NCBI GenBank assembly: GCA_965204665.1
Contig: OZ242002.1
Coordinates: forward strand, 1,433,995-1,497,994
Length of the DNA stretch: 64,000 nucleotides
Direction: 5' to 3'
Source of the DNA: Thermodesulfobacteriota bacterium
GTDB taxonomy: Bacteria; Desulfobacterota_D; UBA1144; Nemesobacterales; Nemesobacteraceae
Part shown: one piece after another, positions 1 to 61,452 of the stretch
Layout of the letters: each line of letters starts with the position of its first letter
Numbering within the stretch: position 1 is the first letter of the stretch
Notes under the pieces: generated by a model
Databases searched by the model: none
Seen by the model: only the letters and a program-made list of their open reading frames with translations
What the model was told of the DNA's origin: nothing
Program-made: the position numbers and the translations under genes

Positions 1-69
1 GTCCGCAAGCTCTCTTTGTTGTGAATAGCGGGCCGTTTTCAGTCAGTTAAACTATTCATGCTAAATTAA
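1..69 (+). CRISPR. Partial CRISPR array at window edge: spacer-like 1-33 followed by one 36-nt repeat (34-69), GTTTTCAGTCAGTTAAACTATTCATGCTAAATTAAA
   Basis: The 36-nt unit starts GTTTT like type II repeats. Its first 14 nt are the exact reverse complement of 4522-4535 (predicted tracrRNA anti-repeat). Its 3' end carries TGCTAAATT, an extended -10-like motif as in Neisseria type II-C repeats. It lies directly downstream of cas2. Only one repeat copy falls inside the window, so the array itself is inferred. Confidence 0.4.
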
Positions 70-90
70 AAGTGTGGATAGGCGGTTACG

Positions 91-155
91 GTTCCCAAAC
101 GAATTAAAAAAGACATATTTGTTTGGGAACCTTTTCTGTTTTTCTTCGTTTTTTT
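91..155 (+). terminator. Hairpin plus T-rich tract between the repeat and the cas2 3' end; candidate terminator for plus-strand pre-crRNA read-through
   Basis: Perfect 11-bp inverted repeat GGTTCCCAAAC...GTTTGGGAACC (91-131, 20-nt loop), followed by TTTTCTGTTTTTCTTCGTTTTTTT on the plus strand. No T-tract follows it on the minus strand. Confidence 0.35.
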
Positions 156-433
156 CCATAAAAAACCTGCATTCGCTCAAATTGCTTATCTGTAATATTA
201 ATAACTCTCACCTCGCCTCTTGGAGGCAAAGCATTGCGAACTTTTCCGGCATGCACATATGCGTTTTCATCACTGGCACAATGTCGTACGTAAACGGAAA
301 ACTGAAGCATGGAGAACCCATCTTGGATGAGGGATTTACGGAATTGGGTATATGAACGCCTATCCGCTTTATTCTCTGTGGGTAGATCAAACATTACTAT
401 TACCCACAAAGTTTTATATCCTCCGAAGATCAT
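104..433 (-). CDS. cas2: CRISPR-associated endoribonuclease Cas2
   Basis: 109 aa. N-terminal VIVMFDLPTE...SLIQDGFSMLQFSVYVR matches the Cas2 fold signature. Sits directly downstream of cas1 with a 1-nt gap. Confidence 0.85.
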   Translation of the reverse strand: MIFGGYKTLWVIVMFDLPTENKADRRSYTQFRKSLIQDGFSMLQFSVYVRHCASDENAYVHAGKVRNALPPRGEVRVINITDKQFERMQVFYGKKRRKTEKVPKQICLF

Positions 434-435
434 TT

Positions 436-1347
436 TTATATCAGAACCATTTCTTGTTGTTTCTTAATTACAAGTTCTGGGATTTCTAAGAATTCGGACC
501 CTTCGGTTAAAGACTTTTTTAAACTTGCGGCGGTATGTTGCAAAGCTACCATGAAAGGGATGTTTCTTCCTCTAAAAGACAACGGTTCAGCCAAGATGGA
601 TAGTAGAAAAGCTTTTGTTTTTTTATTGATATCAAATATTCCCCGCTCCCAGAGTTTATATACCTTTCTGTCAACTGCTGGCCTGAATGGTTCAATCAGG
701 TCGTCCGCAAGGCACATGGGATTGTATTGATTATGGTGGTGGATACCCAAAGCTGGGTGCAGACCTGTCCCGCAGATAGCGCGAGCAACGGAGGACCTTA
801 CTAGAGAGTACCCATAATTCAGCAGAGAGTTTGTCCCATCAGCTTCTTGGTCTCGTTTGAAACTTTGACCGAACATTAGCGGCCAGTAAATTCTTGATGC
901 CTGAGATTCGATATTTTCAGGGTCACCGCTCCGTACACGCGATTTCATTGAGTTGAGACCGGGAGAAGATTTTCCACAAGAAAGCAATGCCTTTATTTGA
1001 GCTTCTATTTTTGCAATTACAATCTTCTGCCAAAGACGCTTTTTTAGAGGTTTCTTCACACTCGTCTGAATATTTAAAATTTTACTGTGTAGGCAATTTC
1101 CAGAGAGAGGGAGAAGGACAGATACAGGTATATGTCTGCGGTCGCAAAAAATGATAATACAGTTGTTCTGCTGACAGGATGCTATGAGGTTTGAAGAGAT
1201 CGTCACTGATGGATTGGACACTATAAGTACTCCGATATCTTCAATTGGAATCCTTCCGACTTCGATTTTCTGCTGCTCAATTACCATCTGAAGATTCTTA
1301 GTATGAAGATAGGAAGGAGTGCTGATATCGACAATGCGTTTAACCAT
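436..1347 (-). CDS. cas1: CRISPR-associated endonuclease Cas1 (type II)
   Basis: 303 aa. Conserved Cas1 C-terminal region ...GIHHHNQYNPMCLADDLIEPFRPAVD. Overlaps the cas9 stop by 8 nt. Confidence 0.9.
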   Translation of the reverse strand: MVKRIVDISTPSYLHTKNLQMVIEQQKIEVGRIPIEDIGVLIVSNPSVTISSNLIASCQQNNCIIIFCDRRHIPVSVLLPLSGNCLHSKILNIQTSVKKPLKKRLWQKIVIAKIEAQIKALLSCGKSSPGLNSMKSRVRSGDPENIESQASRIYWPLMFGQSFKRDQEADGTNSLLNYGYSLVRSSVARAICGTGLHPALGIHHHNQYNPMCLADDLIEPFRPAVDRKVYKLWERGIFDINKKTKAFLLSILAEPLSFRGRNIPFMVALQHTAASLKKSLTEGSEFLEIPELVIKKQQEMVLI

Positions 1348-4300
1348 CTCGGTTTTTCAAGAGGACCCCGAGCACATCCACGGACTCCTTCCGCATATCA
1401 AAGTTTTTCATAAGTACTGAGATACTTTTCTGTACGCATTCCTTTTTGTTGTTTAGCGTTGCTGCACTGAGGAGTCTCAAAGTTAGTCTTGAGGCACTAG
1501 CCTCAAGTTTCTGCACACGGTAAAATACCCTTTCACCGTTCTCCTCTAGGCTTACGGTATCGTTACTGCAGAGATAGGTTATGTACTCCCAATCTTCTCC
1601 ATGTTCAGTTCTTACAATCGGCTCCTTGAATATCCGAACCTTTTTCGCAACTTCCATGGTTGTTATGAATTCACCTTCATATTTTCCGTTTTGACGGTTT
1701 CTTGTTATTTCTACATGGTGGATATTTCCGTACCTGAGAACATGTAGGGTTTTGCCTTCCTCGTTCTTGTGGTTCCAGTAGGAGTCTTCCGGAAAATCTT
1801 TCGACACCCAGACCCTTGCGCGACATATTTCGTTTCTCGTTTTCGGATGGATCAATGGCTTTTTCGACAATTGCTTCATTGCGGTTTTTACATCTCCTCC
1901 ACCCTCCCAGACATATCTCTCGACTGCAGATCTGATCACAGGGCAAACAATGTTTCCTTTTTCCTTCTCGGTCATATTCTCAAGCATTTTACGCACCACT
2001 AACCCGTGTTTTCCGCCTTCGCCTTCTCTTATCCCGTAGACCGTCTCCTCATGGAACGCTCCAGTTAATTTTCTGTTGGTAGCATGCGAGACTATGAGAT
2101 TTCCTAGTCGGTTGGAAAGAGTATCTCTCAGTTTTAGAAGCGGCGGGTCGACCTTGATTTTGTGATCGGGAGAAATGTCATCATCATCTGGTTTCTGCAA
2201 CTCGGTAATTTGATGAATGATCTTCTGGTAAAGCCTGCGGGTTGTGAGTGCGATTACAGTTGCGTCAACAGCATGGTGCCTGTGGTCTTCTCTGTTTTTT
2301 TCTCCACTATCCCCGAGCAAATTATTGAGTCCCCACTGTTTCCGTAGCCAGCTTGTCGCGCCACCTTTGGTGAAAGATACGTCACAACCTAAGTTCCTTA
2401 TATATTTTCCTGCTTCTCTTGATATGTAGCGTGCGTCTGTCAACTGATTGCTTATAAATTCATCAATTCCACCAAGGTCTTCTTTTAGTAATCTTTCTTT
2501 TTTTGGTCTGGGTAGTGAATTTGAAATTGACAAAATAGAATCCCATTCTTCAGTTTCTTCAAACGCTTCCCGAGGAGTCCTTGCTCCTTTTTCCCTGTTC
2601 TTTCTTGAAAAACAGATAACTTTGTTCATGTACGAGTCGTCAAGGGACCTCTTATACGGAAGTATATGATCAATCTCCGTTTCATCGGTAAAAAGTGTGG
2701 TTTTAGATATCATTTCTCCGCTGTAAATGCATACTCCCCCGCTTTCTTCCCATAGGCGGTATTTCAGTCTGTCCTGATAACTTATGTTCTTCTTGAGTTT
2801 AAGTTGTTGGTTATTGACCCTGATTATTTCATATTGTTCTCTAGCTCTTTCATTTGATTCTTCGTTCTTTTTGTACCTTGCGAGAGTTTCCTTGTACCTT
2901 TTAGTGTTCATTTCAAGGTCTCGCGCCATTTCTATTCGTACTGCGGATGGTTTACCGTATTTTTTGATAATTGCGTTTATAACATGTCGGAGTTCGTAGA
3001 GGGCCTTTTGAACTATTGGATTCGGTATCCAAGGTGGAGACGGAAGCAGGTCAGAATTTCCTTTTTCAACTTCACTGAACTTGTATCCTGCAATGTCTAC
3101 AGCATCATGATATTTTTTCCCTTCTTGCAGATAATGAAGAATCTTTTTCGTTGCTTTCAAAGAAAGGTTCGAATGTTCTTCCTCTAGTTCCACCACAGCA
3201 AGTCTAGTAGCTTCTTCTTCAGGAAATCTCCAGTGATTTAGGAAACGCTTTTTGAGCCCTTTTTTTGAGTTGTAAGAGATTATATCTTCGACAATCTGGG
3301 ACTGTTTCTCTTCACTGAAAGAATCCCAACTATCTCCGAGAATCTTTCTTATATCGCACGCTGTTGTATTTCCTTTGAGACCTTTTGTATTTCCCGGAAC
3401 CTTCTGAAGGTTAAATTCCGTTGCTTTGGGTAGTTTCAGAGCTTTTCTCACTGACGACCATGAGAGCCGTTTTGTCTTTTCAAGTTCACAAGCAAGATTT
3501 TTTTTCTGTTCGTCAGATAGAGGTATATCTATCTCACCTGTTTCAGGATCATCATAAGAGAGATTATTTATTTGTTGCCAGTAGCGAAATTGCTGAGATT
3601 CAAGGCGGGCATTCCTAGTTCTGCTCAACTTGGGTTCGAATGTACAATGCCCCACTCTATCCGGCTTCAGTTTAAGAGGTCTTTGGAAAAAGATGATGTG
3701 CTCAAGTTCCTCCTTCATCTTCTTATGGTAGATTTCAGGATTGAGTTCCGACTGCTTTTCCCATATCTTTTCGAACTCTTCTTTGTACATTGCCCTGTCC
3801 GTGTGTCGGTCATGTAGCGACCCCCTGTTTCGTTTGCGGGGAAGTCCAGACAGGTACTCTCCGAGAGTTCTAGTACCGACCTCGTCCATTTCCTTCCTGA
3901 GTGTTTTTATGTATCCCTTCAGATTTTTTTCGTCGTTGTCTTTATTGGAAGAGTTGTTTTCTTTTTCAAGAATGTTTTGGGCTTTGATGTCATCCGCCAA
4001 GTCTCCAAATGAGGTCTTGCGGTTGCTTAGAAACCCCCTGCGGGACCCTAGATGAAGAAGCGCTCTGCCAAACTCATGACGAGTCAGTTCCTCGTCCATC
4101 GCTTTTTTTCTTATTGAATAAGGGTCTCCCAACTTATTGAGTTCCTGCTCGGGGGAGGAATTATTCTTCAATGAATCGGGCAGAAATCCTTTGAGGACAA
4201 GGTAGTTTCTCAGGCGATTTTTACGTCTACTGCGACGTTGCACCTGTCTTCTCTGGAGGCGTGATTCTCTGCGTTTTCTATTTTTCGGGGTAGGGGATTT

Positions 4301-4447
4301 ATCTTCAACGGAGCGGATGAATATGCGACTTCCACAGTCGATAAATTTTCTGGGTTCTCCATATTTCTCTTCTATTATGCTCCATCCGATAGAGTTTGTC
4401 CCCATATCAAGTCCTATAGCGTATTCAGATAAATTCGACTTTTTCAT
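1340..4447 (-). CDS. cas9: Cas9 (type II-C, compact 1035 aa)
   Basis: RuvC-I motif IGLDMGTNSIGWSI at the N-terminus; HNH motif IDHILPYKRSLDDSYMNKVICFSRKNREKG; RuvC-III HHAVDATVIAL. Followed by cas1-cas2 with no csn2 or cas4, hence II-C. Confidence 0.95.
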   Translation of the reverse strand: MKKSNLSEYAIGLDMGTNSIGWSIIEEKYGEPRKFIDCGSRIFIRSVEDKSPTPKNRKRRESRLQRRQVQRRSRRKNRLRNYLVLKGFLPDSLKNNSSPEQELNKLGDPYSIRKKAMDEELTRHEFGRALLHLGSRRGFLSNRKTSFGDLADDIKAQNILEKENNSSNKDNDEKNLKGYIKTLRKEMDEVGTRTLGEYLSGLPRKRNRGSLHDRHTDRAMYKEEFEKIWEKQSELNPEIYHKKMKEELEHIIFFQRPLKLKPDRVGHCTFEPKLSRTRNARLESQQFRYWQQINNLSYDDPETGEIDIPLSDEQKKNLACELEKTKRLSWSSVRKALKLPKATEFNLQKVPGNTKGLKGNTTACDIRKILGDSWDSFSEEKQSQIVEDIISYNSKKGLKKRFLNHWRFPEEEATRLAVVELEEEHSNLSLKATKKILHYLQEGKKYHDAVDIAGYKFSEVEKGNSDLLPSPPWIPNPIVQKALYELRHVINAIIKKYGKPSAVRIEMARDLEMNTKRYKETLARYKKNEESNERAREQYEIIRVNNQQLKLKKNISYQDRLKYRLWEESGGVCIYSGEMISKTTLFTDETEIDHILPYKRSLDDSYMNKVICFSRKNREKGARTPREAFEETEEWDSILSISNSLPRPKKERLLKEDLGGIDEFISNQLTDARYISREAGKYIRNLGCDVSFTKGGATSWLRKQWGLNNLLGDSGEKNREDHRHHAVDATVIALTTRRLYQKIIHQITELQKPDDDDISPDHKIKVDPPLLKLRDTLSNRLGNLIVSHATNRKLTGAFHEETVYGIREGEGGKHGLVVRKMLENMTEKEKGNIVCPVIRSAVERYVWEGGGDVKTAMKQLSKKPLIHPKTRNEICRARVWVSKDFPEDSYWNHKNEEGKTLHVLRYGNIHHVEITRNRQNGKYEGEFITTMEVAKKVRIFKEPIVRTEHGEDWEYITYLCSNDTVSLEENGERVFYRVQKLEASASRLTLRLLSAATLNNKKECVQKSISVLMKNFDMRKESVDVLGVLLKNRDG

Positions 4448-4499
4448 CTTTAATTGTAAAAAATTCCTCCTGTTCGCTTGACTTTCAAGCCGTATATTG

Positions 4500-4633
4500 T
4501 AACGTATTAAGCAAGTTACACAACTGACTGAAAACTGCCATGATATTTGCTTTTGCTATTCATAACAAGAAGCGAATGTTTCGCAGGTAATCTCTACGGA
4601 GAACCCAGCCCTCGCACTCGGGGGCTTTTTTTT
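4500..4633 (+). ncRNA. Predicted tracrRNA (anti-repeat 4522-4535, internal hairpin, intrinsic terminator 4608-4633)
   Basis: AACTGACTGAAAAC at 4522-4535 is the perfect reverse complement of the repeat 5' end (34-47). Flanking partial complementarity is consistent with a lower stem, bulge and upper stem. Downstream hairpin GCGAA-TGT-TTCGC, then GCCCTC-GCACTC-GGGGGC followed by T8 on the plus strand. No plus-strand protein gene lies upstream that this terminator could serve. Confidence 0.5.
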
Positions 4634-4655
4634 ATCTGATTTTCGACTGTTGACT

Positions 4656-6092
4656 TTAGTCGGTTTGCAGATTTTTGAGGGATTCGAATTCAAACAACGC
4701 TTTTTTTCTTGCTGTCGAATGATCAACTATCTGAACTGGGTAAGATCCACGACCTGAACCTTTCCACGGTTCATGAGTATACAGGTTCGACACATTCTTG
4801 AGTTCCGGAATCCATCTCCGCACATAATCACCTTCCGGGTCGAATTTCTTTCCTTGGAGAGTCGGATTGAAAATACGAAAAAAGGGAGCGGCGTCCACCC
4901 CGCATCCCGCGACCCACTGCCAACTGACTGAGTTGTTCGCGAGGTCCGCGTCCACCAGAGTTTCGAAGAACCACTCGGCACCCCGCTGCCACGGAATTAA
5001 GAGATGTTTTACCAGGAATGACGCAGCGACCATCCGCACGCGGTTATGCATCCATCCGGTTGTCAGGAGCTGGCGCATTCCCGCGTCCACTATGGGATAA
5101 CCGGTAAGTCCTCGTTGCCAAAGGTCAAGCAACTCTTCGTTATCTTTCCAGGGGAATCGTTCAAATTCTTTCCGAAACGGCTTGTCGGGAAATTCCGGCC
5201 GGTGATAGAGAAGATGATGGGAGAATTCCCGCCAGATCAACTGACGCAAAAAGGAATCACAGTCTTCTTGAGAGCGGTTTTTCAGATTACGGCTTGCCGA
5301 GTGCCAGCAGAGCCTAGGTGAAATCTCTCCGAAATGAAGATGAGGAGAAAGCTTGGAAGTTCCGGAGACATCCGGCCGGTCGCGTTGCGTTTTATAGAGG
5401 GCCCCCGAATTTTCAAGAAACGAATCAATCCGCACAAGGGCTCCCCGTTCTCCGGGCGTCCATAAGTCGAGCCATCCCAGAGCCCGGTCGGGCTTTTGCG
5501 GAAGCAGGTTCCATGCTGAGAGAGAATCACCTCTCAAAGGTTTTTCCGGGCGGGAAATCTCTCTGGGTGCGGGAAGTGGCGAGCGGAGAGGGAGTTTTTT
5601 GAGGCACGCTCTGTAGAAAGGCGTGAAGACCCTGAAGCAGTCGCCTTTTCCGGTCGCTACCGATTCGGGAGGAAAAAGAAGACTGCCGTCGAAAGCGCGG
5701 ACCCCGATTCCAGTATCAGTTAGAACCCGTTCCACTTCCGTTTCTGTCTTTTTCGCGTGAGGTTCCGAAAGCCGGTTGAAATGGACAGCCGCAGCCCCGG
5801 TTTCGCGGGCAATTTCCGCGAGCACATCCGGAGGATTACCGCACCTGAGCAGAAGGCGATTCCCGTAGGACCCGAGAGTCTCATCAATTCCCGCGAGACT
5901 GTGGTGGAGCCACCATCTGCTTGCTCCCCGCGGAGCCCAGGGGTCGGAGTCTCCGTCTTCGAGTATGTAGACCGCTATCACAGGTCTTGATTTTTCTGCG
6001 GCCGCGAAAAGCGCAGGATTATCCGTAACCCTGAGGTCTTTTCGGAACCAGTGAATTACAGGATGTTCTTTTTCCCCTGTATGATTCATCAT
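4656..6092 (-). CDS. phr: Deoxyribodipyrimidine photolyase (class I CPD photolyase/cryptochrome family)
   Basis: 478 aa. N-terminal IHWFRKDLRVTDNPAL and FAD-binding C-terminal WQWVAGCGVDAAPFFRIFNPTLQGKKFDPEGDYVRRWIPEL. Confidence 0.9.
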   Translation of the reverse strand: MMNHTGEKEHPVIHWFRKDLRVTDNPALFAAAEKSRPVIAVYILEDGDSDPWAPRGASRWWLHHSLAGIDETLGSYGNRLLLRCGNPPDVLAEIARETGAAAVHFNRLSEPHAKKTETEVERVLTDTGIGVRAFDGSLLFPPESVATGKGDCFRVFTPFYRACLKKLPLRSPLPAPREISRPEKPLRGDSLSAWNLLPQKPDRALGWLDLWTPGERGALVRIDSFLENSGALYKTQRDRPDVSGTSKLSPHLHFGEISPRLCWHSASRNLKNRSQEDCDSFLRQLIWREFSHHLLYHRPEFPDKPFRKEFERFPWKDNEELLDLWQRGLTGYPIVDAGMRQLLTTGWMHNRVRMVAASFLVKHLLIPWQRGAEWFFETLVDADLANNSVSWQWVAGCGVDAAPFFRIFNPTLQGKKFDPEGDYVRRWIPELKNVSNLYTHEPWKGSGRGSYPVQIVDHSTARKKALFEFESLKNLQTD

Positions 6093-11539: not shown

Positions 11540-12246
11540 AGGACTGGATATGCACTACTGACCGTCCTTATGATTATTCCGGCCTGCCTCGTGGGCAGAA
11601 AATCCTTGCATTCTGTTGATATTTTTTCAGATATATGTTTTCTACGGTTCTTTCAAAATCTGCTGCTCGATGCCTGCAGTCAAAGCGAAAGCGGATTGAT
11701 TATAATTTCCGAGCAGCTCGGTGCGGTCATGTCAGCCACGACGAGGTAAGCGTTCGGGCGGACCGTGACGAGGTGTCTGCTTTAGGTAATGCGCCGCTTT
11801 TGGACTTGTCGGATTGTGCGAAGCTCCAAGCTTGGCGAGGAAGTTCGAATGCTCAGGTTGGCGTTGCTTTGCCGCCCACTTGGTAGCGCGTGTGTGGAAT
11901 ATTATCATAAGATGTCTCGTGGGTCGGAGAGCGGGAAGTATCATTACCCAAAATGCTCCGCATGATCTTCAAGCCGGGTATGTGCGCGGAGAACAACCGG
12001 CGAAGGCTCAACGGATTCGACTTCGTAGGGAAAGTGATGACGGGTGTGAAATTCAAAGATGGGATTGAGAGATAAATAAGAAAAACGAAAAGGAGAATTC
12101 AAATAACTGGAACGCCTCTCGGTCATGCAAACACTGGATTTGACAATAACTCGTTTCAGGTCTGCTTATATAAATACGGAAACACCATGACCGGGTTTTA
12201 AACTCCTTCCGTATCATATATACTTCAAGTATTCAAAAAGTTTTTT

Positions 12247-17286: not shown

Positions 17287-19031
17287 GTGAGCATTCTAAT
17301 AAAAACTGTGCGTGTTTCAGGATTTCGCGGGCTGGAAAATCTACAGGTGGATCTGGAGCGGACAACTGTTTTAACTGGAATGAATAATACAGGGAAGACA
17401 TCGTTTCTAAAGGCAATACAGATAGCATTGGGCAATCAGTTTATTTCTCCCGACGACTTTTTCATCCGTGATAATAGCAGTTGTGAGCGAATTACGATTG
17501 ATCTGCTTATTGTGCCTGTAGACATCGATGGTTCTGATGTCGACGATTTCTCCGAAGATTGGGAAGTGTTGCTGACCACCGACAGAATTAGAACGGACGG
17601 TATAAAAAACTTCCTGCCTCTAAGGACGATTTGTACTCTTGATTCAACGAACAGCAGTTATAAAATGCAACAATTCATCTTATCAGGTTGGCCGGAATTT
17701 AATGGTAATAACGATTGGCATAAACATGACGATGGTAAAAAAACACGCTTCCATTTCGAGGAAATCCCCTTTTTTATATGGACGCCCAGCGCGACATTAT
17801 GGAGGATACTAGACAAAAAAGTTCATATCTTGGAAAAATGTTGGCCAATATTGAATATTCGGACGCGGATATTGACGAGATAGAAACGCAGATCAAACAG
17901 TTGAACGAGAAAGCCGTAAGTAGCAGTGATGTTCTCCGTAATATTAAAGATACTCTTAAAGACTTAGATTCAGCGATGGGCAGCCAAAGCCATGGTATTG
18001 AGATAACTCCCTTCACTAAGAAAATACGCGATTTGAACAAAGGGATGAGTATCTACTACGGCGACAACAAGGACAGTTTTTCTATGGAGTACCATGGAAT
18101 GGGCACTAGAAGCTGGTCTTCTCTTTTGACTCTAAAGTCCTTTATCAACCAACTTTCCTCTCAAGCAGAGAACAAGAACAACGTGTTTTTCCCACTGCTG
18201 GCCGTAGAAGAACCGGAGGCGCACCTGCATCCGAATGCACAAAAAAAGTTGTACGGGCAAATAAATAACATCGCCGGTCAGAAAATCATTTCAACCCATT
18301 CCCCGTATATTGCTGCTGCTGCGGATATTAAGCAAATTCGAAATTTTTATAAAAGTGAAAAGGTGAATTGTGGCCGTATTAAGATTGATGCCTCGAATAA
18401 GGAAGACATAAGAAAAATAGAGCGTCGGGTGATTAGCCGCAGGGGTGAAATGTTTTTCTCGAAGTTGATCGTGTTTTTTGAAGGGGAAACCGAGGAGCAG
18501 GCATTACCGGTATTTTTCCGGAAATATTTCAGTAGAACCCATGTTGAAGTCGGTTTGGATTTCGTTGGAGTAGGCGGTTATACAAACTATCTTCCCTTTA
18601 TTAGATTCGCCGAAGATCTGGGCATTCCCTGGTTGATTCTCTCAGATGCTGAACAAAAGGCGAAAACGAATGTTTCGGAACAATTTCAGAAATGCAACAC
18701 ACAGAAAAATCTCAATGAAGTTGTTCTTTATTTAGATGGGAGCAACAATTTTGAGCGTCAACTAATTGCTGATGGATTTCAGGATGAAATTAGAAAGAGT
18801 ATTCTTGGTTTTTATGATTACGACAACGAACAAAATAGGGCAGACAGAGAGCAAAAAGTCGAAAGCTATACCGACGATGAACTTTATGAAACCATCAAGA
18901 AAAATAAGACGAAGTACGGCCCCGCCGTTGCAGAAAAAATCATAGAGAGCGGCAAAGAGTTGCCGCCGAAGATTGTAACCCTCTTCGAAAAAGTAAAGTC
19001 CATCCTTAAGTTAGGGGGAGTTGATGTATGA
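17287..19031 (+). pseudogene. gajA: OLD-family ABC-ATPase/Toprim nuclease (GajA-like), split by a 1-nt frameshift
   Basis: Walker A GMNNTGKTS in ORF 17287-17883. Q-loop-like LFYMDAQRD, Walker B LLAVEEPEAHLHP and the Toprim region (VFFEGETEEQ...LILSDAE) are in ORF 17778-19031, in another frame. The overlap contains A7, C4 and T6 homopolymers (17737-17775). Confidence 0.7.
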
Positions 19032-20908
19032 CTTCTCAAGTCGAATTGTCAGAAAAACAACGATCCATTGTTTATGCCGGTCCTGGTCCGGTCTGTGTCA
19101 AGGCCAGTGCTGGCAGCGGTAAAACGCGGGTGCTCACTCAACGCATCAGATATCTACTCAAGCAGTCCAACAAGAAAATATTAGCCTTGACCTTTACCAA
19201 CAAAGCCGGTCAGGAGATCAAGGAAAGACTAAGCGATATTTCTGATATTGATAACAGAACTTTTATAGGTACATTCCACAGTTTTTGCCAATCAATCTTG
19301 GAAAGTCACGGGAAATTGATTGGTTACTCCACAATGCCGCACATATTTGAAGATGAGGCAGATAGACTTGAACTTGTTGAAAGCGCAATCAGCCAAGTTC
19401 CGTCCTATGCAAGCGTTTACAGGAAAAAAGAGGGAAAGCGACGGAGAGACTTTTGCTATCGGGCATTACATTTTGTATCCAAAGTAAAACGAGACCTGAT
19501 CAGTGAATCTGATATAGAGAACCACACGAACGATGACAACATCGTTCTGCTATATCGTAACTATCAAGAACTTTTGAAAGTACAGAATGCTATAGATTTC
19601 GATGACCTATTGCTGGAAGCCTACAATTTGTTCGCCAGTTATTCAAGAATTGCTGCTTTATATCGCCGCAGTTTTTTCGCGATTTGTGTAGATGAAGCTC
19701 AAGACCTTAACAAAGCCCAGTATCAGTTTCTGAAAACTTTAACCGGTGACGAATTCAACAACATTCTGATGGTGGGTGACCCCAACCAATCCATTTTTCA
19801 CTTTAACGGCTCCTCACCGGATTATATGAACAAGTTTTTTGTTGAGGATTTTACTTCAAAAACTGTGGAGTTGACTGAAAATTTCCGATCATCTGTCGAA
19901 GTACTGAAGGCTGCGGAAAAGATTATCCCTGAGGCGGAATATATCGAGGGAACCGTAAAGCGGGGAATATTTGAGATGCATGAAAAAGAGAATGAAACGG
20001 CTGAGGCTGAGTGGGTGGCATCAAAAATTCAAGAAATATTAAGTATGAAGAAACATAGTGACATTGAAGGTGATATTTGCCCGGAGAAGATAGCAGTACT
20101 TGCTAGAAACAAGTATTTGTTCAAGTCCCTGGAAAAAGTTCTGAGTCAATGCTGTATTTCTTACTATTACAAAATGACGCCCGGGTCCTTGAAGTTCGAG
20201 TCCTCCGTAATGCAGGTATTCGACCTCGCTTTAAGGATCAAACTGAATTCACAAGATTTGTTGCACAAAAAACAATTATTGAAGATATTAGATCTTGACG
20301 GAAATGAAAATTCATCCCTTGCGGATATTGCAAAAACATCCGTTCGTACTGAATACAAAAAAATAATATCTCTTGTTATGTCTCTGGATGAAAACGGAGA
20401 AAATTTCAAAAGAAACCTTGAAAATTACAGAGATATGGTCTCCATTGACGACGATAATGATAAAAATATGTTGTTCAATGAGATTAACGAGTTGCTCGTC
20501 CATTGGTATAACTATGCCAAGAGCGTAGACAACACCTCGATTCATCAATTCAAGAACTCGATGGCGCTGGGGCAAACTCACCCTGCAATTCAACACTCAG
20601 GAGTTACTTTAAGCACTGTGCATACGATGAAAGGGCAGGAGTTTGATATCGTTTTTATCATAGGAATGGATGATGAAACCTTTCCGGATTATCGTGCTGT
20701 CAAAAGCGGAGGCGTAGATATGTTGCAGGAGAAGAATAACCTTTACGTTGCATTCACAAGGTCCAAGCGGTGGCTTTATATAACATGGCCTGCAAATAGA
20801 AGTATGCCTTGGGGAGATACTAAACGGCGAAAAAAATCTCGCTTCCTAGTTGGCTTTGAGTCCGAAGAAACAACTCCCAGCAGAAATCTCACGGCCGCTT
20901 TTTCCTGA
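19028..20908 (+). CDS. gajB: UvrD/PcrA/Rep-family SF1 helicase (GajB-like)
   Basis: Motif I ASAGSGKTRVL, II VDEAQDL, III GDPNQSIF, V TVHTMKGQEFDIVF, VI YVAFTRSKRWLYI. ATGA overlap with the gajA-like stop. Confidence 0.75.
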   Translation: MTSQVELSEKQRSIVYAGPGPVCVKASAGSGKTRVLTQRIRYLLKQSNKKILALTFTNKAGQEIKERLSDISDIDNRTFIGTFHSFCQSILESHGKLIGYSTMPHIFEDEADRLELVESAISQVPSYASVYRKKEGKRRRDFCYRALHFVSKVKRDLISESDIENHTNDDNIVLLYRNYQELLKVQNAIDFDDLLLEAYNLFASYSRIAALYRRSFFAICVDEAQDLNKAQYQFLKTLTGDEFNNILMVGDPNQSIFHFNGSSPDYMNKFFVEDFTSKTVELTENFRSSVEVLKAAEKIIPEAEYIEGTVKRGIFEMHEKENETAEAEWVASKIQEILSMKKHSDIEGDICPEKIAVLARNKYLFKSLEKVLSQCCISYYYKMTPGSLKFESSVMQVFDLALRIKLNSQDLLHKKQLLKILDLDGNENSSLADIAKTSVRTEYKKIISLVMSLDENGENFKRNLENYRDMVSIDDDNDKNMLFNEINELLVHWYNYAKSVDNTSIHQFKNSMALGQTHPAIQHSGVTLSTVHTMKGQEFDIVFIIGMDDETFPDYRAVKSGGVDMLQEKNNLYVAFTRSKRWLYITWPANRSMPWGDTKRRKKSRFLVGFESEETTPSRNLTAAFS

Positions 20909-30000: not shown

Positions 30001-31608
30001 CTATTTTTTCCCGTAAGAATAGGTCCAGTCGGTTACAGTCGGTATTTCATCAAAATTTTCGTGGGGCGGCGGAGAAGGAACCTGCCATTCAAGAGAGAGA
30101 GAACCGTATGGATTGGACGGTAGCGGACCCTCCGCTTTTTTCAGCAGCGGTAGAATCAGGTTCACGGTCATTATGATAACTCCGAGTCCCAGTATCCATG
30201 ACCCGTATGTCGAGAGCGAGTGATAGGATGTGTATTCAACGGGGTAGGTGGCGTACCTTCTCGGCATTCCCTGAAAGCCCATGAAGAACTGAGGGAAAAA
30301 CGTCACGTTGAACCCCGCAAACACCAGGAACCATGAGACTTTCGCCGTAAATTCATTGAACGCTCTTCCGAACCATTTCTGATACCAGAAATGAAGGGCG
30401 CCGAAAAATCCCATTACCGTACCTCCTATCATTACGTAGTGCATGTGAGCTACCACGAAATAGGTGTCATGCAGATGGACGTCAACTGCAAGCGCACCCA
30501 GATAGACCCCGGTAAGACCTCCCACGGTGAAAAGCACTATGAACGACAACGCGTAGAGCATTGATGAGTGGAAGTCTATGGATCCCTTGTACAGCGTCGC
30601 CGTCCAGTTAAACACCTTTATGGCTGTCGGAATGGCCACAAGCATTGTGAGGAATGAGAAAATACCGGCCGCTGTTTCCGATATTCCGCTTACGAACATG
30701 TGGTGCAGCCAGACGAAGAAACTTATTATGGCTATCGCGAAACTCGAGTAGGCGATGGCTTTGTATCCGAAAATGGGTTTTCTCGCAAAAACGGGGATTA
30801 TCTCCGATATGATTCCGAAAGCCGGTATGATCATTATGTACACCGCAGGATGAGAGTAGAACCAGAAGAAGTTCTGAAACAGTATGGGGTCGCCTCCCTT
30901 CGCGGGATCGAAAAAACCTATGTCCAGCATCCGCTCGGCTATAAGCAGAAGCAGAGTGATTCCTACAACGGGGGTCGCCAGCAGCTGAAGTATCGCGGTC
31001 GCGTAGGACGCCCAGATAAAAAGAGGCAACCTGCCCCAGGTCATTCCCGGAGCTCTCAATTTGTGTATGGTCACTATAAAATTCATTCCCGTCAGTATCG
31101 ACGAGAATCCGAGAACGAAAACCCCCAGAGTTATCATGATCACTTTCGTTCCGGACTGTATGCTGTACGGAGTATAGAATGTCCATCCGGTGTCGGCAGG
31201 CTGGAGAAGCGCGGAAAGCAGGACCGCCGTTCCGACGAGATATATCCAGAAACTGAGCAGATTGATTCTCGGAAACGCCACGTCCCTCGCCCCGATCATG
31301 AGAGGTATGAGGAAATTGCCGAAACTCGCCGCGATTCCGGGAACTATAAAGAAGAAAACCATCAGAGAGCCGTGCAGAGTGAAAGCCACGTTGTATTCAG
31401 TCGGGTTTCTGAAGAAATCAAGTTCCGGAGTCATAAGCTCGTATCTCATTCCCAAGGCGGTCAGTCCCGCGATAAGGAAGAAGAACGATATGGATATCAG
31501 ATATAGAATCCCAATCCTTTTGTGGTCTGTCGACAGTATCCACGACTTCCAACCCTGTTGAGCCAGAAACGGTATATGCTGATTATGCGTCATGACTCCG
31601 TTTGCCAT
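30001..31608 (-). CDS. ctaD: Cytochrome c oxidase subunit I
   Basis: 535 aa. Heme/CuB ligands WFFGHPEVY-like FWFYSHPAVY and HHMF region. Confidence 0.95.
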   Translation of the reverse strand: MANGVMTHNQHIPFLAQQGWKSWILSTDHKRIGILYLISISFFFLIAGLTALGMRYELMTPELDFFRNPTEYNVAFTLHGSLMVFFFIVPGIAASFGNFLIPLMIGARDVAFPRINLLSFWIYLVGTAVLLSALLQPADTGWTFYTPYSIQSGTKVIMITLGVFVLGFSSILTGMNFIVTIHKLRAPGMTWGRLPLFIWASYATAILQLLATPVVGITLLLLIAERMLDIGFFDPAKGGDPILFQNFFWFYSHPAVYIMIIPAFGIISEIIPVFARKPIFGYKAIAYSSFAIAIISFFVWLHHMFVSGISETAAGIFSFLTMLVAIPTAIKVFNWTATLYKGSIDFHSSMLYALSFIVLFTVGGLTGVYLGALAVDVHLHDTYFVVAHMHYVMIGGTVMGFFGALHFWYQKWFGRAFNEFTAKVSWFLVFAGFNVTFFPQFFMGFQGMPRRYATYPVEYTSYHSLSTYGSWILGLGVIIMTVNLILPLLKKAEGPLPSNPYGSLSLEWQVPSPPPHENFDEIPTVTDWTYSYGKK

Positions 31609-41790: not shown

Positions 41791-41865
41791 GGGCGGTTAG
41801 CTCAGCGGGAGAGCATCTGCCTTACAAGCAGAGGGTCACAGGTTCAAATCCTGTACCGCCCACCA
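41791..41865 (+). tRNA. tRNA-Val (anticodon TAC), CCA encoded
   Basis: Cloverleaf readable by eye: acceptor GGGCGGT/ACCGCCC, anticodon loop CTTACAA, T-loop GGTTCAAATCC. Confidence 0.85.
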
Positions 41866-41873
41866 TTTTAAAC

Positions 41874-41948
41874 GGGGCCGTAGTTCAGTTTGGTCAGAAC
41901 GCTGGCCTGTCAAGCCAGAGGTCGCGGGTTCAAATCCCGTCGGTCCCG
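41874..41948 (+). tRNA. tRNA-Asp (anticodon GTC)
   Basis: Acceptor GGGGCCG/CGGTCCC (one G-U), anticodon loop CTGTCAA, T-loop GGTTCAAATCC. 8 nt after tRNA-Val. Confidence 0.85.
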
Positions 41949-42314
41949 CACCCCGATTTATTTTACAGCGCCCGTCCCATGGCCCTCTGTCGGTTTTTGT
42001 ACGCACCTTGGTCTATCCCCCCCCTCTCATCTCAATTTGCAAAGTCTAAGCGAGACAGGGCTGTGTTTCTCGTAACTCGCCGAGCAGGCGAACAAACAAC
42101 TGTCGCAGTGAACGGACCGGAGAAAAGAGTGTCAGTATGCAGCGTACGGTTGTTTTGATGCGTCAAGCAGACTTGAGCAACCGAGCGCGAATTGTTTCAT
42201 AACATGTCTTGGACCCGACTCGGCGTCCTCGTCCGATGTATCTGCGTATTTGCTTGAAATTATATAAAATAGTATCAGAAATGAAGATTTATATTCAAAT
42301 CTGAGCATGGAGAG

Positions 42315-45300
42315 TTGACGGTGACGAAGCACTCGTTCTCTGGTCAAGAAAATGAATTGCATCTGCGATGTCTCTCTGTTGACCTTGAGGTGGACAGCAG
42401 GAGCGGAAAAATTCGTGCCGTCGGTGCCGTGCGTTCAGATACCGGACAATCAGTCAGTTTTCGAAACGGGGACCTGCGGAAGTTGCTTGAGGAACTGGAT
42501 GATTTTGCGGACGGCGCATCTCTTCTTGTCGGCCATAACCTGATAAAATTCGACCGTCCTAAACTGGATGCCGTAAAATCCGATCTCAATCTTTTGAAAC
42601 TGCCGTCAATAGACACTCTCTGGCTGAGCCCTCTTGCCTTTCCTCGCAACCCTTATCATAAGCTGGTGAAGCACTACAAGAAAGGAGACTTGGTGCGCGA
42701 GCAGATAAACAAACCTGAACTGGATGCGAAGATTGCTCTAACTCTTCTCCATGACGAATGGAACTCCCTGCGGAGAACAGATAAAGACCTGACCCTTATT
42801 TGGCACCGGTTGGCCACATCCGATAGCGGGATGTCGGGTTTTAATATGTTCTTCTCTTCTCTGAGGAATTCATCTCCTCCTTCAGATGTCGAAACCCGAA
42901 AGACGCTAAGCAGATGGCTTGAGGGCAAAGTCTGTCAAACTCATGCCGGCGACATTACAAACGTGGCCAGACGAAATCCGTGGCCGTTTGCTTATGCTTT
43001 GGCGTGGTTTTCAGTGGCGGGAGGTAACTCCGTAATGCCGCCCTGGGTCCGTCATCAGTTTCCCGAAGCGGGGCGTATAGTCCGTAAGTTACGTGACACC
43101 GCCTGCGTCAATGACGGATGTATCTGGTGTCGTGAGAACCACGATTCCCGCAAGGAACTTTCCCGCTGGTTCGGCTATTCCGATTTTCGACCGGGGCAGA
43201 AATCGGTAGTTGATACTGCTATGGTCGGAAACCATGTTCTGGGAATTATGCCCACAGGCGCCGGCAAATCGCTTTGCTACCAGGTTCCCGCTCTTTCGCG
43301 CTACCACAAAACGGGGGCATTGACCGTTGTAATCTCACCGCTGGTCGCTCTTATGGCGGACCAAGTGGCAGGTCTTGAGTCGAGAGGGATCGGGTCATGC
43401 GTTACCGTAAACGGACTTTTATCCATGCCTGAGCGTGTTACGGCTCTGGAGAGGGTGAGGCTTGGAGACGCGAGCATACTTATAATTTCACCGGAGGGAC
43501 TCCGCAACATTTCACTGATACGAGCACTGGACCAACGGGAGATAGGCGCTTGGGTGCTTGACGAAGCTCATTGTCTCTCAAGATGGGGTCATGATTTCCG
43601 CCCTGATTACCGATATGTGGGAAGGTTTATACGCAGCAGGTCGGAGAACGGTTATGTGGCGCCCGTAATGTGTCTTACCGCAACAGCGAAACCCGAAGTT
43701 GTAGATGAAATCAAGTCTTATTTCAGAAAGCATCTGGGAGTGGATTTAATTGTTTTTAACTGCGGAGCGCACCGTCCGAATCTTATTTTTCAGGTTGTGC
43801 TGACGAGCGAAGCGAAAAAGTTTTCCCAAATATACCGGATAATTGAAGCCAATTTGCCGAACGGAACGTCGGGAGGCGCCATAGTTTATTGCGCGACGCG
43901 CGCGAATACGGAAGAAATGGCAGTTTTTCTTAAAGGAAAAGGTCTTGAATCTGACTTTTTTCATGCCGGCCTTCCTCCGCAGAAAAAACTGAATGTGCAG
44001 AAAAGTTTCATCAACGGCGACCTGCAGGTTATTTCTGCCACCAATGCATTCGGCATGGGAATTGACAAAGAGGATGTGCGCGTCGTGATCCATGCGGATA
44101 TACCGGGGTCGCTTGAGAATTATCTGCAGGAGGCTGGAAGAGCGGGAAGAGATCAAAGACCCGCCCACTGCGTGCTTCTCTATACGCAGGAAGATGTCGA
44201 AAGACAATTCGGATTCTCGGCGCGTTCACGGCTGACCCGAGAAGAGATCCAGAGCATTTTCAGATTCCTGCGCAGACTGGACAAAAAGAAACGAACGGGC
44301 GGAGAGATCGTGGTCACCTCAGGTGAGATTCTGTTTGAAGACAGGGACAATGAGATTAGAAACAACAGAAGAGACTCCGTGACCGATAATACCGGTGATA
44401 CCAAGGTTCGTACGGCTATTTCTTGGCTTGAAGAATCAGATATGCTCACCCGGGAAAAAAACCTGGTTAGTGTTTTCCCGTCTTTTCTTTATGTGAACTC
44501 TTTAGACGAGGCGAAGAGAAGGCTTCAGAGTAAAGGAATAAATTCCGACCGTCTTGACGGTCTTCTATCCATAGTCAGGGAAATAATGAATGCGGATAAA
44601 GATCAAGGGATTTCCACTGACGAACTTATGCACATATCGGGGCTCAGTCCGCAGAGAGTTCTCTCCGCCCTGAGTGATCTGGAGAGTTCCGACATAGTCA
44701 GTAACGACATTACGATGACCGCCTTCGTGCATTCCGGGGTTAAGCATTCATCTCTTCGCCGCTTCCGGGAGGCGCAGGATCTGGAATGTTCACTGATCAA
44801 CTACATGCGCGATATGAAGAATGATGTCAAGTTGGTTGAACAGGGGTTTACTCTGTCTCTGTCCGCTGCGGTGCAGGCACTGCGGGAACAGATGAAGGAT
44901 GAGAATCTTTTCCCTCAACGATTACTTAGCATACTGCGCAGCATATCCTACGACGGCCGTGGAGAGATGGACAACTCGGGGAGTCTGGGAGTGCGAAACC
45001 TGAACGGCAGGTCAGTTCGTCTGACGCTTTTCCGGGAATGGTCTGATTTGGAAAAAATTGCGGAACTCAGGCGCGGGGCGGCGGAAGCAGTGCTTCGCCA
45101 CCTGCTGAGCCGCGTACCTAAAGGTACACACGGAGTTGACCTCAAAGTTGATACGACTTTCGGAAAACTGTCAAGGGAAATCGCTTCTGACATAGGATTA
45201 AGAAAGGGGAGCCGAGATCTGCAGGAATTACGGAAAAAATTACAGGACAGAGCTCTTATGTGGTTACACGAACAGAGAGTCATACGTCTTCACAGAGGAC

Positions 45301-60111: not shown

Positions 60112-61452
60112 TCAGTCCACGAATTCCCGTCGGGCCGCTGTATTGCGGATTGTATCTGCTACACCGGATGACTGTAACTGAACAACATCATCGAAAGTAG
60201 TGGTTCCTGCTACGATAACGGAAATATTAACGGTGCCGGTTCCGCCGAACGTTTTGGCTCCTTGGGGGAAACCCTTGAAGCGGATCTTGTCGTTCTGTGA
60301 TGCATTAAAGTCCCTGATAGCGTCCTTCTCATTTCTGTGCTCGTATTCAAGGACGAAGATGTCGGCGCCGGCCTGGCCGTAAAGAATGTCGGCACCGGCA
60401 CCACCTGTAATAACATCATTACCACCCCCTCCAGCGAGCAGATCATTTCCGGCTTTTCCGTTAATCGTATCGTTTCCACCCAGCCCGTAAAGGTGATTTC
60501 CCAGAGCATCTCCGCTGATGGTATCATTGGCGCTAGTGGCCATAACGTTCTCAATACCTGTAAATGTAGACATTCCCCAACCATGAGTACTGCCGTCGAA
60601 AGACCCGGTGGAAAGATCAAAGGTTACAGATGTATTCACAAAATTGAAGACAGCTTGGGAATTATCCTTCAATCCCGGCAATATGGCACTTGCACTAGGT
60701 ATATTACCTATGAGCATCAAATCATTTGCAGCAGCACCACGAAGAGCAGTTCCTGTCGGGGTGCCGCCGTTAAATCTGTTATTCCCTGGTTCAGTCAGAA
60801 AAAAAACATCTCCACCGTCTCCACCGTTGAGCGTATCATTGCCGTCGCCGCCATAGAGTACGTCCCGTCCCGCATCGCCGTTGATGGTATCATCGCCGCC
60901 TGCTCCCCGGATATAATCAGCACCGTCTCCGCCGTGGATGGTATTGGCGCCGGCGGTGGCCCAGATTGTATCATCTCCGTCTCCGCCGTAGATGATGTCG
61001 TCGGTAGTTCCCGAGAGGTTGCCGTCAAGATGAGCATCAATGTGGTCATCTCCGTCTTCACCATATATCGTATCCGTGCCGGCACCGCCGCCTATCTTGT
61101 CGTTTCCGGCACCGGCGTAAACAGTATCATCGCCGTCTCCGGCATTAATCGTGTTTTTGTACTGATTTCCGCATATGACATCGTCGTCATCAGTCCCCGT
61201 GATATCATTGGAGATACCGGGCAGCGCATTTATACCGTTGCTCACGTCGCATCTGGGGTCACCGAAGGACTTTCCCTGATCTCCCTGCGGGCCCCCCGCT
61301 CCCTGTGTTCCCGGATCTCCTTTATCTCCTTTCGCCCCGTCTTTCCCTGCCGGACCTGCTGGTCCCGCAGGACCTCTATCCCCCTCACAAGCAACAAAGA
61401 AAACCGCTCCGCCGAGCAGAAACAACAAAACTAAGAAATTACGTAACTTCAT
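60112..61452 (-). CDS. Secreted lipoprotein with collagen-like (G-X-Y)13 segment followed by RTX-type Ca2+-binding beta-roll repeats
   Basis: Signal peptide with lipobox FFVAC; GPAGPAGPAGKDGAKGDKGDPGTQGAGGPQGDQG; many GGxGxDxux nonapeptides (GGDGDDTIW, GGAGNDKIGGGAGTDTIYG, GGNDTINGKAGNDLLAGGGGNDVITGGAGADILYG). Confidence 0.75.
   Translation of the reverse strand: MKLRNFLVLLFLLGGAVFFVACEGDRGPAGPAGPAGKDGAKGDKGDPGTQGAGGPQGDQGKSFGDPRCDVSNGINALPGISNDITGTDDDDVICGNQYKNTINAGDGDDTVYAGAGNDKIGGGAGTDTIYGEDGDDHIDAHLDGNLSGTTDDIIYGGDGDDTIWATAGANTIHGGDGADYIRGAGGDDTINGDAGRDVLYGGDGNDTLNGGDGGDVFFLTEPGNNRFNGGTPTGTALRGAAANDLMLIGNIPSASAILPGLKDNSQAVFNFVNTSVTFDLSTGSFDGSTHGWGMSTFTGIENVMATSANDTISGDALGNHLYGLGGNDTINGKAGNDLLAGGGGNDVITGGAGADILYGQAGADIFVLEYEHRNEKDAIRDFNASQNDKIRFKGFPQGAKTFGGTGTVNISVIVAGTTTFDDVVQLQSSGVADTIRNTAARREFVD

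Follow-up and report, generated by a model that had tools for sequence, protein, structure and literature searches.

A probably active, compact type II-C CRISPR-Cas9 locus from a Thermodesulfobacteriota chromosome and its predicted guide RNAs

At its left end, the window (by which we mean the whole 64,000-nucleotide (nt) stretch of a Thermodesulfobacteriota, Dadabacteria-like, chromosome that was analysed) carries what is in all likelihood a complete, and probably active, type II-C locus of the CRISPR-Cas9 adaptive immune system (CRISPR stands for short palindromic repeats that are clustered and regularly interspaced), as judged from its sequence. An intact cas9-cas1-cas2 operon lies between a CRISPR repeat, probably the cas2-nearest end of an array, and a predicted gene for the trans-activating CRISPR RNA (tracrRNA), the product of which would pair with the repeat. 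It is an intact but ordinary small Cas9 system and not a new kind. Three of its points are mildly unusual, namely the large one-sided bulge on the tracrRNA side of the duplex, the position of the tracrRNA gene upstream of and divergent from cas9, and a probable terminator in the stop codon of cas2. The parts of the locus are given here in the order of their coordinates, with lengths in nt, base pairs (bp) or amino acids (aa).

1-17, plus strand: 3′ part of a spacer, cas2-proximal and probably the newest, directly 5′ of the repeat.
18-53, plus strand: CRISPR repeat GTTGTGAATAGCGGGCCGTTTTCAGTCAGTTAAACT, 36 nt, the copy nearest to cas2 and the last in the predicted direction of CRISPR RNA (crRNA) transcription.
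54-89, plus strand: leader-like spacer region that separates cas2 from the array, with a GCTAAA motif common to the relatives (nine loci compared).
90-156, plus strand: 15-bp hairpin (90-104/117-131) that spans the stop codon of cas2, with a T-rich run (132-156) after it.
104-433, minus strand: cas2, 109 aa (TIGR01573, 74 bits; PF09827).
436-1347, minus strand: cas1 of the type II class, 303 aa (TIGR03639 cas1_NMENI, 282 bits against a cut-off of 120).
1340-4447, minus strand: cas9, 1035 aa (TIGR01865, 654 bits against a cut-off of 100; Pfam HNH_4, RuvC_III and Cas9_a).
4493-4498, plus strand: -10-like box TATATT, the predicted tracrRNA promoter, with a start predicted near 4505.
4505-4633, plus strand: predicted tracrRNA gene, about 129 nt, its 5′ end approximate, 58 nt upstream of cas9 and divergent from it.
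4522-4539, plus strand: upper-stem arm of the anti-repeat, pairing with repeat nt 14-31 (window 31-48) at 17 of 18 positions.
4540-4554, plus strand: tracrRNA-side bulge ATGATATTTGCTTTT, 15 nt, opposite the single repeat base G13.
4555-4566, plus strand: lower-stem arm of the anti-repeat, pairing with repeat nt 1-12 (window 18-29) at 12 of 12 positions, with one G·U at repeat G4.
4569-4582, plus strand: nexus-like hairpin GAAGC-GAAU-GUUUC (RNAalifold helix, columns 49-62).
4586-4605, plus strand: second hairpin GG-UAA-UCUC-UACG-GAGA-A-CC (RNAalifold helices 2-4).
4607-4633, plus strand: intrinsic terminator, with an 8-bp G+C-rich stem (4607-4626) and U8 (4626-4633).

The genes cas9, cas1 and cas2 form a head-to-tail operon on the minus strand in which neighbours abut or overlap, and the next genes upstream of cas9 encode a photolyase, Era and an enoyl-CoA hydratase (ECH). 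No csn2 and no cas4 is found among the genes called in the window, nor was either called in the nine related loci introduced below; the profile matches and the neighbouring genes bear out the minimal cas9-cas1-cas2 set that a sequence-only reading of this DNA had proposed. Since type II-C is defined by a gene set of cas9, cas1 and cas2 only (PMC3737331), we assign the locus to that type. Within Cas9, profile matches place HNH_4 at residues 573-625 and RuvC_III at residues 662-794, and an R-rich stretch at residues 59-83 corresponds to the bridge helix. The RuvC motifs contain D14 in GLDMG (RuvC-I), E506 in IEMARD (RuvC-II) and H725/D728 in HHAVDA (RuvC-III), and the HNH motif contains H594 in DHILPY, followed by N608 in NKV. 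The catalytic D of RuvC-I and H of HNH, on which the earlier reading had made its proposal depend, are therefore present as D14 and H594, and in an alignment with the solved II-C Cas9 9ar4 the RuvC-I, HNH and RuvC-III motifs match residue for residue. With all of its RuvC and HNH motifs there, the enzyme is, on the evidence of its primary structure, catalytically intact.

The best matches of this Cas9 among solved structures are all enzymes of II-C size (267-197 bits), compared with 113-133 bits for St1/Sa-type enzymes and about 55 bits for SpCas9. By these match scores, the protein groups with II-C and not with II-A, II-B or II-D. Type II-D (Cas9d) was considered as a candidate and rejected, as the NF049971 model gives 158.6 bits against a cut-off of 375 and the protein, at 1035 aa, is not under ~950 aa.

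Because the window probably begins inside the array, the rest of which would lie beyond its left edge, and holds one copy only, the repeat was delimited from related loci, its boundaries being taken from the arrays in L002, L003 and L006-L012. In a scan of species-representative genomes, the repeat was matched in one genome only, the Thermodesulfobacteriota metagenome-assembled genome (MAG) CAXXCU010000001, where a 31-mer from 18-48 occurs in 25 copies in one contig and the array sits directly after a cas9-cas1-cas2 operon. Eight further loci were obtained via Cas9 homologues 46-68% identical to that of the window. Directly after cas2, the nine related loci carry arrays of 3-41 same-family 36-nt repeats with 29-31-nt spacers. 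With limits set in this way, the 36-nt unit in plus-strand orientation reads GTTGTGAATAGCGGGCCGTTTTCAGTCAGTTAAAAT, and the window copy at 18-53 is identical to the 25-copy repeat at 35 of 36 nt, differing at position 35. A repeat starting at GTTTT (35-70) was dropped, since the relatives' arrays fix the unit as 18-53. The leader, or acquisition end, of the array probably lies on the cas2-proximal side, because degenerate repeats are found at the cas-distal array end in two relatives, L001 and L009. The closest syntenic relative (L003, ~11780-11860) has two consecutive identical spacers (AATGGCGAGTTAACGAATTGTCTTTTGTCA) in its array, which represents a duplicated spacer-repeat unit.

The link between this repeat and the element upstream of cas9 is provided by two complementary arms. 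The 14-mer AACTGACTGAAAAC at 4522-4535 on the plus strand has its exact complement at 35-48; the sequence-only reading had recognised this perfect anti-repeat but had set its partner one base off, at 34-47. A search of the 64 kb with up to one mismatch returned these two matches only, against 0.04 expected, and GCTATTCAYAAC is likewise present only at the two lower-stem places, against 0.01 expected. An inverted-repeat scan gave the arms 31-48/4522-4539 (18 nt, 94% complementary) and, collinear with this first pair, 16-29/4555-4568 (14 nt, 93% complementary). The bulge within a partly extended pairing, as described earlier, is thus there, but the pairing is larger than had been thought, with two arms (12/12 and 17/18) around the 15 unpaired nt. 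When folded in silico, as the earlier reading had suggested, the repeat and the segment 4501-4590(+) reach a duplex energy of -41.9 kcal/mol, the best non-self site in the window, against a background of 6394 segments on both strands with a mean of -17.2 and a standard deviation of 3.6 kcal/mol. The full 36-nt repeat, as known from the relatives, is complementary to the tracrRNA element over 30 of its first 31 nt, so that the other condition under which the earlier reading would have failed, a repeat without complementarity to 4522-4535, did not come true.

The two partners also change together among the related loci. In L008, GCUUUUU in one is accompanied by AAAAAGC in the other, and in L011 AAUUA is accompanied by CAAUU (repeat AATTA/G, tracrRNA CAATT), a compensatory change in the lower stem. 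L012, the most distant locus, has a wholly different yet perfect 24-bp upper stem and a lower stem of ~7 bp. In the matrix of duplex energies, cognate repeat/anti-repeat pairs rank first or close to first. It could be argued that the complementarity arose by chance, or marks an inert degenerate orphan repeat with the real tracrRNA encoded elsewhere, given that any 5-kb stretch will commonly contain inverted repeats of 13-18 nt with an 80-93% match (33 pairs found). We consider this effectively refuted by the uniqueness of both halves in the 64 kb, by a duplex energy that is the best in the window, by the presence of no other anti-repeat in the window, and by the conservation of the element, its position and its structure, with covariation, in nine loci.

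Beyond the anti-repeat, the predicted tracrRNA has the further modules expected of such an RNA. All nine related loci, with Cas9 proteins 46-68% identical, have the element in the corresponding position upstream of cas9, and its folding z-score is -3.85. In a nine-sequence alignment (A1) evaluated with RNAalifold, 92.8% of cells in the 3′ modules are paired and 9 of 17 pairs show a compensatory change; these covariation values were reached by 0 of 500 shuffles, and slid controls collapse. The nexus-like hairpin has compensatory changes in three of its five pairs, with 97.8% of cells paired. This hairpin had been noticed before; covariation backs GAAGC/GUUUC (4569-4582) and not the equally foldable GCGAA/UUCGC, which single-sequence folds prefer but which cannot form in the relatives, where GAAGC/GYUUC can. 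In the second hairpin, the inner pairs all three covary (UCUC/GAGA, CCUU/AAGG, CCCC/GGGG). The terminator hairpin and a T run of at least 6 are kept in all loci, and the intrinsic terminator with T8 that was first described is confirmed (stem 4607-4626, T8 4626-4633). Upstream, the window and the six closest loci (L002, L003, L006-L009) have a GTATAnT/TAAAAT box that precedes the anti-repeat by 18-26 nt, the relatives' -10-like boxes being TATAAT, TATAGT or TAAAAT. A search of Rfam gave no tracrRNA or CRISPR-repeat family at the gathering score or at E values up to 10, only noise, and a metagenome scan with Cas9 gave two distant loci only (32-33% identity), which were of no help for the tracrRNA.

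The strand of both RNAs follows from the same features. We place them on the plus strand because the U8 terminator and the conserved -10-like box lie there, because the modules on that strand (anti-repeat, nexus, hairpins, terminator) succeed one another as in a canonical tracrRNA, and because minus-strand RNAs would have C·A mismatches in place of the conserved G·U pairs of the lower stem and hairpins. Transcription of the array would therefore proceed towards cas2 and converge with that of the cas operon. A reading in which both RNAs come from the minus strand, the array being co-transcribed with the cas operon and the anti-repeat lying within a long 5′ leader of cas9, is very improbable in our view. 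Watson-Crick complementarity is symmetric, so that most of the duplex could also form from minus-strand transcripts, and a promoter-like TTGTTA-17-TATCAT is present at 4568-4540. However, the terminator, the -10 box and the module order all favour the plus strand, the loss of G·U pairs on the minus strand extends from the lower stem and the 3′ hairpins to the cas2-stop hairpin described below, the TTGTTA-17-TATCAT site is not conserved in the relatives, and promoter-like sites are no commoner than chance (6 against 7.4 expected). For the same reasons, that is, no conservation and no excess of such sites, this minus-strand site within the tracrRNA bulge was rejected as a promoter of cas9 and put down to chance. 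Its spacing is created, by chance, by the duplication within the bulge.

With transcription of the array assigned to the plus strand, crRNAs probably start from a -10-like box at the 3′ end of each repeat. The last six repeat bases read TAnnnT in all 10 loci, as TAAAAT, TAAATT, TACAAT or TACACT in the relatives and TAAACT in the window. In N. meningitidis and C. jejuni, repeat-embedded -10 boxes, which in C. jejuni correspond to the repeat-end hexamer, fire short crRNAs independently of RNase III (PMC5965381), and transcription from II-C repeat promoters begins with the 6th nt of every spacer (PMC12477760). A start ~6 nt into a 30-nt spacer predicts guides of ~24 nt.

Transcription in this direction would run antisense into cas2, and the hairpin over the cas2 stop codon is a probable terminator that blocks it. 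RNAfold gives this hairpin -21.8 kcal/mol. Across nine loci 95.6% of cells are paired with 5 compensatory pairs, which 0 of 500 shuffles reach; the non-coding arm co-varies with the coding arm, and several U·G/G·U pairs are valid on the plus strand only. To our knowledge, no such cas2-stop terminator element has been described in II-C loci.

We envision that the locus would work as follows. The array would be transcribed from the plus strand towards cas2, with short crRNAs arising from the -10-like hexamer (TAnnnT) that ends every repeat and starting ~6 nt into the spacer, and read-through would be halted by the conserved hairpin and U-run over the cas2 stop codon. The repeat part of the crRNA and the tracrRNA would then pair in two stems, a lower one of 12 bp and an upper one of 18 bp, with the 15-nt bulge on the tracrRNA side between them; RNase III may trim the upper stem. 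Cas9 would bind this crRNA:tracrRNA duplex along with the nexus and the 3′ hairpins, and its RuvC and HNH sites would cut DNA flanked by a protospacer-adjacent motif (PAM). New spacers would be inserted by Cas1-Cas2 at the cas2-proximal end.

Several observations weigh against a complete and active locus. The window itself holds a single repeat copy and 17 nt of one spacer, and that copy carries a base change at repeat position 35 relative to the relative's consensus. In alignment A1 the bulge exceeds that of the closest relatives by 6 nt (15 versus 8-9 nt), the extra bases being an apparent tandem duplication (TTTGCT TTTGCT) that is exclusive to this genome and found in no relative. In the repeat, the hexamer is preceded by AGT and not by the complete TGn of the extended -10 in Neisseria and Campylobacter, and this incomplete extension makes the crRNA-promoter step less certain. 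A generic sigma-70 scan of the window did not call the tracrRNA promoter, and no protospacer was found when 164 spacers of the nine related arrays were compared with the window and the related loci. In other searches, four cas2-proximal spacers of the relatives had no exact match in viral contigs, and ~70 spacers (L002, L003, L008 and L009; a 2,897-nt query) had no match in a phage collection.

The single visible repeat, its base change and the long bulge would also be expected of a decaying or silent remnant, in which no more than this one repeat may be left of the array and the 6-nt duplication may have damaged the tracrRNA, so that intact genes confer no immunity. Decay does happen in this clade, as a frameshifted cas9 in the related MAG L002 indicates. 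Even so, we regard a remnant as improbable, since all three open reading frames (ORFs) are full length and every catalytic motif is kept, since the 17 nt to the left of the repeat (1-17, which resemble neither the repeat nor any related locus) are spacer-like and unlike the flank beyond the relatives' arrays, and since syntenic relatives carry 12-41 repeats. The length of the bulge appears to be tolerated as well: it is one-sided in every locus, with 5-14 unpaired tracrRNA-side nt in the cognate folds of 10 loci, including loci with large arrays, and ~8-13 nt in the relatives by alignment. As for L002 itself, the cas9 ORF there stops at 972 aa and C-terminal coding continues in another frame (4900-5110), through either a frameshift or a long-read assembly error.

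We compared the locus with characterised systems. The closest solved enzymes are II-C Cas9s of 1082-1092 aa, which score 228-267 bits with partial coverage. The system of Neisseria meningitidis (Nme1Cas9, 1082 aa; PDB 6JDQ is, we assume, this enzyme) has the same minimal cas9-cas1-cas2 operon with an NMENI-class Cas1, 30-nt spacers and a 36-nt repeat that starts with GTTGT and ends in a -10-like hexamer, and Nme1Cas9 aligns with the window protein over residues 3-746 (E = 2e-66). The similarity is nevertheless weak (228 bits), with no match beyond those residues, which leaves the C-terminal PAM-interacting part unaligned. The tracrRNA of Neisseria is encoded between cas9 and cas1, whereas that of the window is upstream of and divergent from cas9; the window's tracrRNA-side bulge is much larger (15 nt), and its repeat is without the full TGn extended -10. 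The top scores among solved structures, 267 and 255 bits, belong to Geobacillus-type II-C Cas9s (9ar4, 1082 aa; 8uza/8uzb, 1087 aa), which we take, also from their N-terminal sequence, to be ThermoCas9 and GeoCas9. Here too the match is only partial (residues 8-349 and 424-874), and the window enzyme is ~50 residues shorter, its host is no thermophilic Firmicute and its guide RNA sequence is unrelated. CjCas9 of Campylobacter jejuni (984 aa; presumably PDB 5X2G) resembles the window protein in being a compact II-C enzyme, but the protein match is weaker (E = 2e-37) and confined to the N-terminal half. The C. jejuni repeat ends in TAAAAT, and nearly all of its duplex with the anti-repeat is paired, a large bulge being absent.

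The nearest relatives are found in a clade of Cas9 proteins (P0001-P0120), of which P0001, already in NCBI/ENA, is 100% identical to the window Cas9; identity is 63-68% for 24 full-length proteins and 42-59% for many others. That the 1035-aa Cas9 is among the smaller II-C enzymes, as first stated, is a fair description, though the more than 100 closest homologues listed are themselves of 1017-1091 aa. The clade spans Dadabacteria and other Thermodesulfobacteriota as well as Methylococcales, and its members annotated as Cas9 include those of Ca. Mycalebacterium zealandia, Ca. Dadabacteria, Methylomonas montana and Desulfobulbaceae. Their loci, where examined, have the same layout, repeat family and tracrRNA architecture as the window, which differs from them only in details of repeat and tracrRNA sequence, the 6-nt bulge duplication and its spacers, and in nothing of kind. 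In the literature, we found no paper that quotes the repeat or characterises the ~1030-aa Cas9 clade.

It is conceivable, although we would not expect it, that this clade of ~1030-aa Cas9s uses a distinct guide-RNA architecture, in which a long lower stem of 11-12 bp is combined with a conserved U-rich one-sided tracrRNA bulge read by Cas9 as a specific handle, with crRNAs fired from every repeat and with a terminator built into the cas2 stop codon. If true, such a guide architecture, together with a PAM-interacting domain unlike that of any solved Cas9, would make for a compact editor with a new PAM and an orthogonal guide. In a search of solved structures the C-terminal ~160 residues of Cas9 match none, and the PAM may be new for this reason.

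Biologically the locus adds little, being a textbook-like II-C system at a conserved site in its lineage with a protein that is already public. Its practical value is that of a ready-to-test compact editing enzyme, for which the repeat, the predicted crRNA orientation, the tracrRNA modules and a foldable scaffold are defined. The early suggestion that a single-guide RNA could be designed directly is right, provided that the relatives supply the repeat. A single-guide scaffold, GUUGUGAAUAGCGGGCCGUUUUCA-GAAA-UGAAAACUGCCAUGAUAUUUGCUUUUGCUAUUCAUAACAAGAAGCGAAUGUUUCGCAGGUAAUCUCUACGGAGAACCCAGCCCUCGCACUCGGGGGCUUUUUUUU, joins repeat nt 1-24 through a GAAA loop to the tracrRNA from 4528 and folds exactly as intended (-51.9 kcal/mol, z = -6.3). 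Mining of metagenomes for compact II-C Cas9s is an active and well-trodden field (PMC10278012; bioRxiv 10.64898/2026.08.17.745178), and at 1035 aa the window enzyme is smaller than II-C editors described not long ago as 'compact', which have 1074-1092 aa (bioRxiv 10.64898/2026.08.17.745178).

The surroundings of the locus are also shared by its relatives. The ECH-Era-photolyase-cas9 neighbourhood is common to four related loci, and a fifth (L008) is without the photolyase; from this common neighbourhood we consider the locus an old resident of its chromosomal site. The G+C content of the cas operon (window 1-4000) is 41.5%, against ~49% in the rest of the window, despite the synteny of the locus across relatives with Cas9s only 64-68% identical. 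Just beyond the arrays of relatives lie DUF87 and SIR2_2 (L003, 12515-15102), DUF4276 with a PARIS-like AAA_15/AAA_21 ATPase (L009, 9928-11138) and a D12 methyltransferase (L007, 10030-10470); with defence-type genes in these positions, the site behaves as a defence island.

Elsewhere in the window, a Gabija defence system is encoded at 17287-20908(+), where G+C is low (41%), like that of the cas locus. GajB occupies 19028-20908 (PADLOC PDLC00132, 751 bits), and the GajA sequence is divided between overlapping ORFs at 17287-17883 (model positions 1-166) and 17778-19031 (167-601), a frameshift that represents a pseudogene or an assembly error. In the region 41791-47480, two adjacent tRNA genes (41791-41862 and 41874-41948(+)) are followed by a gene for a 1721-aa fusion protein, in which a DEAD/Helicase_C module (DpdF-like in PADLOC, 382 bits) is joined to a UvrD-type helicase (residues 1106-1568); it is possibly a defence or repair helicase at a tRNA-linked site. 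The window further encodes a haem-copper oxidase subunit I (COX1, 496 bits) at 30001-31608(-) and an RTX calcium-binding repeat protein at 60112-61452(-), the latter with a 54-nt tandem repeat at 60876-60994.

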